Assembly (NCBI GenBank): GCA_024637095.1
Contig: JAGXFV010000032.1
Coordinates: forward strand, 4,423-68,422
DNA: 64,000 nt
Direction: 5' to 3'
From: Actinomycetes bacterium
Lineage (GTDB): Bacteria; Actinomycetota; Thermoleophilia; RBG-16-64-13
Under the pieces are notes generated by a model. It was given only the letters and a program-made list of their open reading frames with translations. It had not been told where the DNA came from and ran no database searches. Below are positions 56,761 to 64,000 of the stretch, in pieces. A program made the translations under genes and the position numbers. Each line of letters begins with the position of its first letter. Positions within the stretch are counted from its first letter, which is position 1.

Positions 56761-58989
56761 TTAGATGCCGGTAGGAAGCTCCGTCGCGTCCGAGCGCTCC
56801 AGCCGAGCGAGGTTGTCGTGGTCGCCGGTCTTCTCGATCGAAACACGGGTGCTACCCCAAGCAAGTTCACCGGTGTCCCCAACTTCCAGCAGTTCGAGCA
56901 GGTCAACGGTGTTGACGCCCCGATCGTTGGCGTAGCGCCCGTAGGCCACGTGTCCCTGGCCCATGGGCATACCCACCACGCCGGGTGCGATTCCCTGAAA
57001 CACGTACACCGGCACCTCGAGTTCGGCGCTCTGGGAGGCGACGCGGACGATATCCCCCGTCTTCAACTCGAGCTCTTCGGCCAATCCGGGATTGATCTCG
57101 ACCCAGCTTTGCCAGACCACGGTGGTCATGGGGTCGGGTGCCTCCTGCAGCCAGGCCTTGTTGGCGTGGCGTCCCTCGGCCAGGAGCAGATGGGGGTAGA
57201 TCTGCAGGCGATGCGGCCGGGCTTCCTCCGGACGGGCCGTCACCAGCTGCTCGAGGGCGACCTCCGAGGGCACGACGGGCGTGACCTCGGGCCGGTCTTC
57301 CTGCGTCGACCACCAGCCTCCGAACTGCCGCCACTCCAAGAAGAACTTCTCCGGATCGTTGGTCAGGATCGAACCGGTCTGAATCCGCCCGGCGGTCAGA
57401 GCCTGCTGCATGGTCTCCACCGACTGACGCACATAGGTGAACTCGTCCTCCCAGGGCAGGAGTTCGGCGTACGTCCCTCCCGCCAGCCGCGCCCCGGCCA
57501 GAAAGATGTCTACGAGCGACCTCGTGTCGAAAACGGGTGGGACCACGGGCTGCTGCGCCGTCATCGTCGAGAGCGCGGTCCCCGGTTCGGGCACACCGAA
57601 ACCCCAGGACTCCAGGTAAGTGTGCTGAGGTAACCGCAGATCGGCGAATAGCTCGCTGGTATCCGTGGGGAAGGGCGAGAAGTCGATGAGGAGAGGCACT
57701 TGGTCGGCCGCTTCGGCGAAGCCCATCGCCTCAGGAAGGTCGTGATAGGGGTCGCCGTCGGCCACCAGCAGCACGTCAACTTCGCCCGCCTTCATGTCTT
57801 CGAGCAGGGCGGCGGTTTCGACATAGGAGGAAACCTCCTCCCGAGGATCGAGTTCGCCTCCCGCTGGGGCCGGCGGGCTGAGGAAGAGGGTGCGGTTGGG
57901 AGCGCCCACCAGCAAGTTGAGCGCGAGCACTGCGCGGATTGCGGCAGGAGCGTTGTCGAAGGCACTCAGGCCACCGCCGGGGATGGCAAGGGGCGCCTCG
58001 GACCGGGCGAATCTCCTGGCGATCCGCACCAGTTTCTCGAAGTCCAGTCCGAGTTCCTCCGCCAGACCGCGCGCCTCCACCTGGGAGAAGAGTGCATCCA
58101 CCGAAGCGGGGCGATCGCCCGCACCCAGACGTTCGTCCAGAACGATCTTGCCTATTATCAGGGCGACCTCGCCCTCGCGCCCACCCGGTGGGGAAAGCCA
58201 ATCGTCGGCCACCGCGGCCGTCGACGAAAGGCGGGGCTCGACCGCCACGAGACTCCCCCGATTGGCGCCCTTACGCAGTTCGGCGAAGCCGCGCGAGTAC
58301 TGTACCGGCGAAAGCCAGGTCTCGAGGAAGGCAGCGTTGAAGCTGATGACCGCGCTTGCCGCCCCGATGTCGAACAGGGGCAGGCGCTCGGCCCCCAGGA
58401 TGTCCCCCGCTGCCTGTTGCAGAAGGTTACGGCCTTCCGCCGCCCGGTAGAGATTCCATACCGTGGGCCGGCGGTTGCCGCCCGCCGCCTCCAGCAGCCG
58501 AGCGGCCACCCGATAAACATGGTCGGGCAGATGACCGCCATAGATCGCGATCCGCCCCGGGGATTCGGAGAGGGCCTGGCCCAGAACGGCCAGCCCCTCG
58601 TCCCAGTTGGTGCGTTCGAAGGGGTCGGTTCTTTGATTTGCGCGCACTTCCGGCCCCTGCAGGCGATCCGGATTATACAACGCTTGGAGACCCGCCTGTC
58701 CTCTGGCGCACAGCCGTCCCTGGCTGATCGGGTGCTGCGGATTGCCTTCGAGTTTATTCGCGCGCCCGTTCATCGTACGCACCAAGATCCCACAGCCCGC
58801 CGGGCACATCTGGCAGAGACTGGTGTAGTAGGTGAAAGTCCCGGCAACCTGCTCCTCGGGGGTGCGCAGGAAAGGAACCAGCCGCTCCTCATTGCCTCTG
58901 CCACCGCAACCGCTCAGAGCAAGCGTGCCTGCCGCGGCCAGTAGCCCGGACTTCTTCAGAAACTCGCGCCGCGTGAACTTGGGCATCAT
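56761..58989 (-). CDS. Tat-exported molybdopterin (Mo-bisPGD family) oxidoreductase catalytic subunit
   Basis: ATG-ATG at 58984-58989. MMPKFTRREFLKKSGLLAAAGTLALSGC..., with the N-terminal Fe-S motif CQMCPAGC...C(ARGQ). About 742 aa. The 1024-aa ORF in the track over-extends across the upstream gene. Confidence 0.7.
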   Translation of the reverse strand: MMPKFTRREFLKKSGLLAAAGTLALSGCGGRGNEERLVPFLRTPEEQVAGTFTYYTSLCQMCPAGCGILVRTMNGRANKLEGNPQHPISQGRLCARGQAGLQALYNPDRLQGPEVRANQRTDPFERTNWDEGLAVLGQALSESPGRIAIYGGHLPDHVYRVAARLLEAAGGNRRPTVWNLYRAAEGRNLLQQAAGDILGAERLPLFDIGAASAVISFNAAFLETWLSPVQYSRGFAELRKGANRGSLVAVEPRLSSTAAVADDWLSPPGGREGEVALIIGKIVLDERLGAGDRPASVDALFSQVEARGLAEELGLDFEKLVRIARRFARSEAPLAIPGGGLSAFDNAPAAIRAVLALNLLVGAPNRTLFLSPPAPAGGELDPREEVSSYVETAALLEDMKAGEVDVLLVADGDPYHDLPEAMGFAEAADQVPLLIDFSPFPTDTSELFADLRLPQHTYLESWGFGVPEPGTALSTMTAQQPVVPPVFDTRSLVDIFLAGARLAGGTYAELLPWEDEFTYVRQSVETMQQALTAGRIQTGSILTNDPEKFFLEWRQFGGWWSTQEDRPEVTPVVPSEVALEQLVTARPEEARPHRLQIYPHLLLAEGRHANKAWLQEAPDPMTTVVWQSWVEINPGLAEELELKTGDIVRVASQSAELEVPVYVFQGIAPGVVGMPMGQGHVAYGRYANDRGVNTVDLLELLEVGDTGELAWGSTRVSIEKTGDHDNLARLERSDATELPTGI

Positions 58990-59009
58990 CCTATTGCTGC
59001 TCTCCCTGT

Positions 59010-63468: not shown

Positions 63469-64000
63469 GGCCCTTGAGGTAGCTGATCGAGGGCTCGGTG
63501 TCGATGAATCCCAGGAGGTGGTAGGCGCGGTCGCTCGCGGCCAGGCGGGCGGCCAGGGAGTCGGGGTCGTTCAGGTCGCCGAAGGTGAGGGCGCCGGTGG
63601 GACATGTCTGCACGCAGGCGGGCACCACTTCCCCCTCGAGCACATCGCGGCCTTCAGCCCGCGCCTGTTGCCTGGCCCTACGTATGCGCTGGACGCAGAA
63701 GGTGCACTTCTCCATGATCCCTACGCCGCGCACGGTGACGTCGGGGTTCAGCTGCGCGTTCATGGGCTCCGGGAACTCCCCTTTGAACCAGTTGAACACC
63801 CGCACCTTGTAGGGGCAGTTGTTGGCGCAGTATCGGGTGCCGAAGCAGCGATTGTAGACTTGGAGGTTGAGGCCGTCGTCCGAATGCACGCTCGCGAACA
63901 CCGGACAGACGGGTTCACAGGGAGCGCGGTCGCAGTGCTGGCAGAGCAGCGGCAAGAAGAGCACGCGCGGCTTGGGCCACTCCGTCTTCCAGTATCGCTC
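63449..64000 (-). CDS. PsrB/NrfC/ActB2-like four-cluster Fe-S subunit, C-terminal part (gene continues beyond the window end)
   Basis: CQHCDRAPCEPVCPV, CFGTRYCANNCPY and CTFC...ACVQTCP motifs. The N-terminus is outside the window. Confidence 0.7.
   Translation of the reverse strand, partial: ERYWKTEWPKPRVLFLPLLCQHCDRAPCEPVCPVFASVHSDDGLNLQVYNRCFGTRYCANNCPYKVRVFNWFKGEFPEPMNAQLNPDVTVRGVGIMEKCTFCVQRIRRARQQARAEGRDVLEGEVVPACVQTCPTGALTFGDLNDPDSLAARLAASDRAYHLLGFIDTEPSISYLKGLGAESG

Follow-up and report, generated by a model that had tools for sequence, protein, structure and literature searches.

A probable Alternative Complex III variant with a split ActB and a fused nonahaem cytochrome at an actinobacterial locus

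We analysed the locus at positions 56761-64000 of a 64,000-nt window of contig JAGXFV010000032.1 (Actinomycetes bacterium). It contains five genes, all on the minus strand, which resemble the act genes of Alternative Complex III (ACIII). ACIII is the main bacterial alternative to the cytochrome bc1 complex and its mechanism is debated, including an iron–sulfur (Fe-S) wire that ends blind in subunit B1. A first-pass annotation of the window had named the same five genes; all of them were found, on the minus strand and coupled, and Pfam agrees with every domain that had been named. The genes and their inner features are given below in the order in which they are transcribed; loci and contigs used for comparison carry L-numbers.

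63449..64000, minus strand: actB2, Fe-S subunit, running to 64129 past the window, with the C-terminal 183 of its 226 aa inside it
61846..63456, minus strand: actC, NrfD-like quinol-binding membrane subunit, 536 aa, ~10 transmembrane helices
61286..61849, minus strand: actD, 187 aa, two transmembrane helices
59010..61289, minus strand: fused nonahaem cytochrome c, 759 aa, made up of an anchor, an ActE-like domain, three monohaem domains and an ActA-like pentahaem domain
61143..61208, minus strand: N-terminal hydrophobic anchor of the cytochrome (aa 28-49, hydropathy scan), ending in FTGC
59610..61007, minus strand: four class-I monohaem c domains of the cytochrome (aa about 95-560), four Cytochrome_CBB3 matches
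59013..59492, minus strand: ActA-like pentahaem domain of the cytochrome (aa 600-759), five CXXCH
56761..58989, minus strand: actB1, stand-alone MopB-like subunit, 742 aa, final gene of the operon
58906..58989, minus strand: twin-arginine signal peptide of ActB1 with lipobox, MMPKFTRREFLK...LALSGC28, motif TRREFLK
58708..58815, minus strand: FS0-type [4Fe-4S] motif of ActB1, C59-x2-C62-x3-C66-x27-C94, then R96
58429..58452, minus strand: segment of ActB1 equivalent to the Mo-ligand loop (L180-R187, LYRAAEGR), with no Cys, Ser or Asp

Operon layout and gene order across relatives

Neighbouring act genes overlap by 8, 4 and 4 nt at three junctions and are 20 nt apart at the fourth, which points to a single, translationally coupled operon; the overlap of 4 nt between actD and the cytochrome gene has the sequence GTGA, the coupling of the ActD gene that had been noticed before. 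A scan of the act operon for promoters and terminators gave counts not above those of shuffled sequence. The Fe-S gene had been described as partial and continuing upstream, where a normal fused ActB would have made the MopB gene an unrelated neighbour. An exact look-up with the cytochrome returned Logan contig L001, which matches the window exactly over all 11,828 shared nt and reaches 3.7 kb past position 64000. The Fe-S gene is complete there (L001:3599-4279), as a stand-alone gene of 226 aa and the first of the operon. A 200-bp gap and then a peptidase M50 gene lie 5' of it, and neither a fused ActB nor a second MopB domain is found upstream of the Fe-S gene on L001. The flanks, HSP20 and peptidase M50 upstream and a UPF0182 gene downstream (convergent with the act operon), are also kept in metagenome-assembled genomes (MAGs) of Thermoleophilia.

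For the comparison of gene order, six protein modules were mapped on 80 loci from species-representative genomes and on seven from exact look-ups. The two arrangements below were recorded.

ActA-MopB-FeS-NrfD-ActD-monohaem c: 73 loci (L005, L006, L014-L024, L026-L087), mostly Chloroflexota, with a few Nitrospinota, Thermodesulfobacteriota and Proteobacteria
FeS-NrfD-ActD-monohaem..pentahaem-MopB: 12 loci (L001-L004, L007-L013, L025), Actinomycetota

The first is the canonical actA-B-C-D-E, except that B1 and B2 are separate genes. B2-C-D-(E..A)-B1, the order of the window, is found in every one of the 12 actinobacterial loci. ActF, a second NrfD gene, follows only in two proteobacterial loci (L082 and L084) among those mapped. 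The actinobacterial order can be derived from actA-B1-B2-C-D-E-(trihaem c) by cyclic permutation, is specific to the clade and includes a fusion of ActE, the trihaem protein and ActA. Taken with the finding that each subunit best matches a chain of a solved ACIII, this bears out the split or reordered ACIII that the first-pass annotation had offered as one of its readings. The order may have arisen by tandem duplication of the operon and then loss of both ends, a route that would bring E, the trihaem gene and A into adjacency and open them to fusion. Concerning divergence, ActB1 is 36-46% identical to Chloroflexota proteins and ActB2 55-68%; against the Chloroflexota-dominated loci, identity is 41% for ActB1, 61% for ActB2 and 51% for ActC. 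These values are suggestive of a faster divergence of ActB1 than of ActB2 and ActC, and carry little weight, since small Fe-S proteins are always well conserved.

Two further observations were made in the compared loci. In three Dehalococcoidia loci (L083, L086 and L087, about 13030-15780) the NrfD match extends over ~2.6 kb and is followed by no ActD or monohaem match; this gene may be a doubled or fused one of the ActC/ActF type. In the Anaerolineae locus L006, genes for a Rieske protein, cytochrome b and a multihaem c, that is, a bc-type complex (L006:378-3624), lie about 6 kb upstream of the split ACIII-like cluster, so that both quinol oxidases coexist there.

Subunits of the membrane module and the fused cytochrome

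Each subunit was compared by sequence with all solved structures, among which the four solved ACIIIs are PDB 6F0K, 6BTM, 6LOD and 8K9E. The Fe-S protein (Fer4_11 in Pfam, E 6e-15) scores 235-265 bits against the B2 domain of the four solved ActB chains, and 93 and 89 bits against ArrB and PsrB, respectively. Its 15 Cys follow a 4+4+3+4 pattern, which would correspond to three [4Fe-4S] clusters and one [3Fe-4S] cluster. Between C95 and C101, two ligands of the three-Cys group, lies Tyr100, which fits the description of the essential Y113 of QrcC (PMC13059093). No signal peptide is found in ActB2.

The membrane protein (NrfD in Pfam, E 1e-24) has about 10 hydrophobic segments. It scores 294-350 bits against ActC of the four solved ACIIIs and 29-41 bits against ActF, and PsrC did not match it in the sequence search of solved structures. 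The quinol pocket of Rhodothermus marinus ActC is lined by Trp82, Ile86, Phe89, Pro136, His139, Leu166, Asp169, Val250 and Asp253 (PMC5928083). In the HMMER alignment all nine (9/9) are kept, as W128, I132, F135, P182, H185, L212, D215, V292 and D295, and most residues of the cytoplasmic proton half-channel are also kept in the alignment to R. marinus ActC. ActD (PF11821 in Pfam, E 7e-17) weakly matches 8k9e_D, and its second transmembrane helix carries a Glu (E101), like Glu122 of R. marinus ActD. A second NrfD-like gene that could encode ActF was found neither in the operon nor in the flanks of L001 and the actinobacterial loci.

The cytochrome contains exactly nine CXXCH motifs, four and then five (at aa 114, 209, 342, 483, 615, 636, 690, 715 and 754). 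Pfam assigns to it four Cytochrome_CBB3 domains (E 3e-53) and a C-terminal domain of the cytochrome c7 type. Residues 600-758 match ActA of the four ACIII structures (90-94 bits), in agreement with the earlier description of four monohaem domains fused to an ActA-like pentahaem domain, and residues 76-198 match ActE of 6LOD and 6F0K (52-58 bits). The third and fourth monohaem domains (aa 326-551, 59610-60320, minus strand) are 58% identical to each other (49/85 in an internal alignment), which suggests an internal duplication; the linkers that part these two domains are low-complexity stretches with much Thr, Pro and Gly. Similarity to CcoP, cytochrome c6 and the actinobacterial QcrC is seen for the extra monohaem domains and fits direct delivery of electrons to an oxidase. 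The FTGC at the end of the N-terminal anchor is a possible lipoprotein signal, at which the cytochrome would be lipidated.

The nine haems of the Chloroflexota loci are distributed over ActA (5), ActE (1) and a trihaem protein (3), and the window has them in one polypeptide as 1+3+5. The other actinobacterial relatives mostly have 7-8 CXXCH, not 9, and one open reading frame (L003) has only 5. One actinobacterial MAG (L007/L025:7968-9983) has a called gene of 671 aa in which ActD and the multihaem cytochrome are joined, and its NrfD gene looks broken; either a further fusion or an artefact of assembly or frameshift could account for this.

ActB1 and the question of a molybdenum cofactor

The last gene of the operon encodes the MopB protein, ActB1, with the Pfam domains Molybdop_Fe4S4, Molybdopterin and Molydop_binding. 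Its best sequence matches in the PDB are ActB of Roseiflexus (136 bits), Chloroflexus (129) and Rhodothermus (121), ahead of ArrA (105) and PsrA (74). The best NCBIfam model is QrcB, at 222 bits and below its cut-off of 440, and the scores for the catalytic models are far under their cut-offs (ArrA 116/1600, PhsA 114/694, DmsA/YnfE 80/778 and TtrA 44/1750). An AlphaFold2 model (mean predicted local distance difference test score, pLDDT, 87) has the MopB fold. In a Foldseek comparison with the PDB the template modelling (TM) score of ArrA (0.75) is slightly over those of ActB (0.69-0.71), with PsrA at 0.72 and an overall range of 0.69-0.76, so that ArrA, PsrA and ActB score alike and the fold cannot separate catalytic from cofactor-less MopB proteins.

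Based on the earlier description, a twin-arginine translocation (Tat) signal and a Cys motif of the CQMCPAGC type were expected at the N-terminus, and both are present, as TRREFLK and as C59-x2-C62-x3-C66-x27-C94. R7 and R8 are invariant among the homologues. The lipobox LSGC is found in 29/30 actinobacterial homologues and in few of those from Chloroflexota, and is thus rare outside the actinobacterial clade. All four FS0 Cys are invariant in 120 homologues, and Arg96, which follows the fourth Cys as in PsrA and ArrA, is present in 119 of them. Residues 49-110 are the most conserved part of the protein, with 63% of columns at least 95% conserved, compared with 11-27% elsewhere. The contrast that had been drawn with the canonical ACIII is also seen, as the three solved ActB chains that were aligned (6LOD, 8K9E and 6F0K) lack all four FS0 Cys.

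The FS0 motif had also been taken as a mark of catalytic competence, and the wider family does not support this. A full scan of 1.84 billion cluster representatives returned 13,162 relatives. In the 134 closest representatives (P0121-P0268), whose selection with an FS0-bearing query biases the set, all four Cys are kept by 122 (91%), including 33 of 35 proteins with the length of a fused ActB, and split forms (about 740 aa) and fused forms (about 1000 aa) are interleaved. A neighbour-joining tree was rooted on ArrA and PsrA; it is built from 232 N-terminal columns with crude distances, and only its coarse topology is used. The FS0-less sequences form two derived groups in this tree, which argues that FS0 is ancestral to the ActB1-like clade and is no sign of catalytic competence. 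The clade of the window lies deep inside the ActB1-like radiation, with a monophyletic actinobacterial group as sister to the split group of Chloroflexota. A split actB1 with the same CX2CX3CX27C motif has already been reported from iron oxidisers (PMC4643136), the B1 part of ACIII is described as free of prosthetic groups (PMC5928083), and ActB has been placed, without Mo-bis(pyranopterin guanine dinucleotide) (Mo-bisPGD), as sister to ArrA/ArxA (Wells et al. 2023, PMC10100899), a placement with which ArrA as the top Foldseek match agrees.

The protein has five Cys in all, namely C28 of the lipobox and the four of FS0 (C59, C62, C66 and C94). For the position of the Mo ligand, the N-terminal parts of ArrA and PsrA were rebuilt from printed alignments and then aligned to the family profile. 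The ligand Cys of ArrA and Cys173 of PsrA align to Ala183, a position with Ala in 94% of the family; in a MAFFT alignment with wider relatives the same Cys fall on Gly186. Neither residue is able to bind Mo. The ligand segment is hypervariable across the ActB1-like clade. At position 185, 95% of the subfamily has D or E and the actinobacterial clade has D, E, A or S; position 187 varies freely within that clade, and the pair G186-R187 is also found, in the alignment, in the cofactor-less ActB of Roseiflexus. With 52 bits, the score of the Pfam Molybdopterin domain falls within the 20-80 bits of FS0-less ActB/QrcB-like relatives; this score was rejected as a proxy for the cofactor, as FS0-bearing and FS0-less relatives overlap fully.

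Ala also takes the ligand position in arsenite oxidase, a true Mo enzyme, so an absent ligand lowers the chance of a cofactor and does not abolish it; in the true Mo enzymes, the Arg after FS0 links FS0 to the pterin. The MopB protein could then be a working Mo/W-bisPGD enzyme, in which ActB2 and ActC deliver quinol electrons via FS0 to the Mo site and a periplasmic substrate is reduced or oxidised as in Psr, Ttr, Arr and Aio, the cytochrome being a side branch. The invariant FS0 Cys and the almost invariant Arg96, a constraint that is unexpected in a pure scaffold, speak for such an enzyme, as do the three MopB domains together with the Tat signal, ArrA as the top structural match, the acidic E185 next to the ligand position and the ability of arsenite oxidase to function with Ala. 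In addition, the Fe-S wire of the solved ACIII ends blind towards B1 (PMC5928083), and an extra cluster could give that branch a use. Against such an enzyme stand the following points: the ligand position is Ala or Gly with no spare Cys, the acidic residue is replaced by Ala or Ser within the actinobacterial clade beside a freely varying position 187, the whole ligand region is hypervariable, G186-R187 is common to a cofactor-less ActB, the Molybdopterin score lies in the range of FS0-less relatives, and the scores for the catalytic models are far under their cut-offs. Also, the MopB gene always lies inside a full ActA/C/D/E set. We therefore regard a working molybdoenzyme as improbable and give a Mo cofactor in ActB1 little chance. 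ActB1 is most likely a molybdenum-free relic, which lacks the Mo-ligand Cys and groups with ActB1/QrcB-like proteins; the genuine Mo-bisPGD enzyme fed by an ACIII-type module, the other reading of the first-pass annotation, is not supported, in view of the ActB1/QrcB-like scores, Ala183 or Gly186 at the ligand position and an FS0 motif that is not diagnostic.

A second trio of MopB, Fe-S and NrfD genes occurs in some Anaerolineae (L026:1673-4057, L036:18427-20814 and L038:15710-16678), a few kb from the ACIII-like cluster. Its MopB protein has about 795 aa, contains FS0 and carries Ser at the column of the Arr/Psr ligand Cys. The trio MopBs of L026 and L036, considered as a catalytic outgroup, served in the tree only, where the group lies between Arr/Psr and the ActB1-like clade. 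On this topology the trio MopB may be the nearest catalytic sister of ActB1.

Electron flow, related systems and surrounding genes

Judged by homology, the locus is most likely the operon actB2-actC-actD-act(E+3c+A)-actB1, encoding a variant of ACIII that would act as a menaquinol:cytochrome c oxidoreductase. Its host would be an uncultured member of the Actinomycetota, probably related to Thermoleophilia, as judged from the relatives and from the actinobacterial UPF0182 neighbour. By analogy with the solved ACIII structures, menaquinol would bind to ActC in its His/Asp/Asp pocket, at the outer face of the membrane, and its electrons would pass to the proximal [3Fe-4S] cluster of ActB2, from there to the ActA-like pentahaem domain and on to the four monohaem domains of the same chain. 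The final acceptor would be a terminal oxidase or another acceptor on the outer face, and protons would be released or translocated through ActC. ActB1 would serve as a lipid-anchored MopB-like scaffold, which very probably holds the [4Fe-4S] cluster FS0 as an extension of the Fe-S wire and no Mo cofactor. It carries the only Tat signal and the Fe-S subunit has none, so the two are probably exported as a pair, as in Psr, Dms and Arr; such co-export would give ActB1 a clear role. All parts on the outer face may be tethered, through the lipobox of ActB1 and the anchor of the cytochrome, which would suit a monoderm envelope without a closed periplasm.

Several points weigh against this assignment, in addition to the constraint on FS0 and Arg96, the Foldseek order and the case of arsenite oxidase given above. 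The periplasmic proton half-channel of R. marinus ActC is altered (Y323 to F365, E326 to Q368 and E338 to D380). ActF, found in all four solved ACIIIs, is missing from the locus. The function is assigned by homology, and the direction of electron flow is not readable from sequence.

The same anatomy could be run in reverse, with donors on the outer face feeding the haem chain and, through it, menaquinone, as in Qrc or the ACIII-like complex of iron oxidisers. In NCBIfam, three of the subunits score best with the QrcB, QrcC and QrcA models, the split of B1 and B2 is the Qrc arrangement, ActF is absent as in Qrc, and uphill electron transfer has been discussed for the FS0-bearing split cluster of iron oxidisers (PMC4643136). 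However, the Qrc scores are far under the equivalog cut-offs (QrcB 222/440, QrcC 189/400 for the partial protein, and QrcA 66/180), the membrane subunit is much nearer to ActC, and ActD and the class-I monohaem domains of the ActE type are not part of Qrc. The [NiFe] hydrogenase in the neighbourhood has its own cytochrome b for quinone reduction, so that no Qrc is needed, and the relatives of the extra monohaem domains (CcoP, cytochrome c6 and QcrC) are typical oxidase donors. We consider reverse flow to be unlikely for these reasons. That the MopB gene has no relation to an adjacent ACIII-type module, its product standing outside the complex, is hardly credible: it comes last, behind the sole non-overlapping junction (the 20-nt gap) and three genes away from its usual partner actB2, but it adjoins other act genes in 87 of 87 loci, in several phyla and both orders, its protein has the only Tat signal open to the signal-less Fe-S subunit, and ActB chains are the closest solved relatives of that protein.

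Compared with the ACIIIs of R. marinus, Flavobacterium johnsoniae, Roseiflexus castenholzii and Chloroflexus aurantiacus, homologues of ActA, B1, B2, C, D and E are all present in the window, with the ActC quinol pocket, the Cys pattern of ActB2 for three [4Fe-4S] and one [3Fe-4S] cluster, and a B1 without Mo ligand as shared traits. The window differs from the solved complexes in several ways: separate genes for the two parts of ActB (226 aa and 742 aa) lie at either end of the operon, B1 has a lipobox and the FS0 Cys that the three aligned ActB chains lack, the locus has no ActF, a single polypeptide unites ActE, three monohaem domains and ActA, and the order is rotated. The split-ActB clusters of iron oxidisers (actA-B1-B2-C-D-E-F; Kato et al. 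2015, PMC4643136) have separate actB1 and actB2 genes and the same CX2CX3CX27C. These and the much larger group of Chloroflexota split clusters, unlike the window, have the canonical order and separate ActA and ActE, and the proteobacterial split clusters (L082 and L084) keep ActF.

QrcABCD resembles the window in having a separate Mo-free MopB-like subunit, a four-cluster Fe-S subunit, a 10-helix NrfD-like subunit and a multihaem cytochrome. It runs from cytochrome c3 to menaquinone, without the ActD and ActE that the window has, and QrcB has no redox cofactor at all (PMC13059093), whereas the ActB1 of the window keeps FS0. ArrAB (6CZ7) and PsrABC (2VPW), the nearest catalytic relatives of ActB1, share the MopB fold (TM score 0.72-0.76), FS0 followed by Arg, and Tat export with a signal-less Fe-S partner; they differ in the ligand Cys (PsrA Cys173, vs Ala or Gly) and in the membrane partner (PsrC type vs ActC type), and ActB1 scores lower to them than to ActB by sequence. 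A precedent for a kept cluster with a lost cofactor is NuoG/Nqo3 of complex I, which is derived from MopB, has lost Mo and in some species keeps N7, the equivalent of FS0, as an off-pathway remnant. It matches ActB1 with at most 27 bits, is cytoplasmic and belongs to another complex.

A split ActB with the FS0 motif is already published (PMC4643136). The novel elements here are the gene arrangement in Actinomycetota, a nonahaem fusion combined with a lost ActF, the lipobox, and how widely the clade keeps FS0; the literature searched on Thermoleophilia and ACIII contained nothing relevant. As an ACIII, the locus would indicate that this complex tolerates a split ActB, the loss of ActF, the fusion of three cytochromes into a nine-haem chain and a rotated gene order. 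Homologues of ActB1 bear the JGI name "anaerobic selenocysteine-containing dehydrogenase"; an FS0-bearing MopB in an act gene context should not be annotated as a molybdoenzyme. The retention of FS0 in 91% of the closest representatives (the query-biased set) raises the question of a fifth cluster and its purpose. There is a small chance that the FS0-bearing ActB1 is active, possibly with a ligand-free bis-PGD as in arsenite oxidase, and gives the Fe-S wire a second redox site at the end that is blind in solved ACIIIs. If so, it would be a living intermediate between molybdoenzymes of the Arr/Psr type and ACIII, with two electron outlets, and the solved cofactor-free ACIIIs would be the exception, because most ActB1-like sequences keep the motif.

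Outside the act locus, the window contains the following genes related to electron transport, cytochrome c maturation and lipidation.

44214-47702, minus strand: membrane-bound [NiFe] hydrogenase, with the small subunit at 46488-47702, the large subunit at 44916-46487 (PF00374, E 4e-131) and cytochrome b at 44214-44837
about 24964-48593, minus strand: scattered System I cytochrome c maturation genes, a full Ccm set, comprising the genes of the next seven lines
48033-48593, minus strand: CcmH
41326-42129, minus strand: tetratricopeptide repeat (TPR) CcmH-like gene
37422-37859 and 37902-38393, minus strand: two adjacent CcmE copies, an unusual duplication
35387-37393, minus strand: CcmF
33469-34326, minus strand: ATP-binding cassette (ABC) ATPase (Ccm)
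32034-32795, minus strand: CcmC-like gene
24964-25686, minus strand: DsbD-type gene
40471-41304, minus strand: Lgt, prolipoprotein diacylglyceryl transferase
23717-24670, minus strand: fdhD (PF02634, E 7e-64), next to a DUF1786 gene and with no MopB gene nearby in the window

The hydrogenase is likely to be an entry point from H2 to quinone upstream of the ACIII-like complex, and Lgt would be the enzyme that attaches lipid to ActB1 at its lipobox, and possibly to the cytochrome as well. Together with the Ccm genes, they fit an organism that feeds H2 electrons to the quinone pool and uses membrane-bound c-type cytochromes. The fdhD gene, whose presence elsewhere in the window had been reported before, was considered as a maturation partner of ActB1 and dropped, as it lies 32 kb away in an unrelated neighbourhood.

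Two other features of the window are the following.

12548-14377, minus strand: DnaB interrupted by an intein (Intein_splicing, E 6e-17)
2503-3783, minus strand: FrhB/FdhB-like protein (F420 dehydrogenase beta type) with a ferredoxin domain, next to the tripartite ATP-independent periplasmic (TRAP) transporter genes DctP and DctQ

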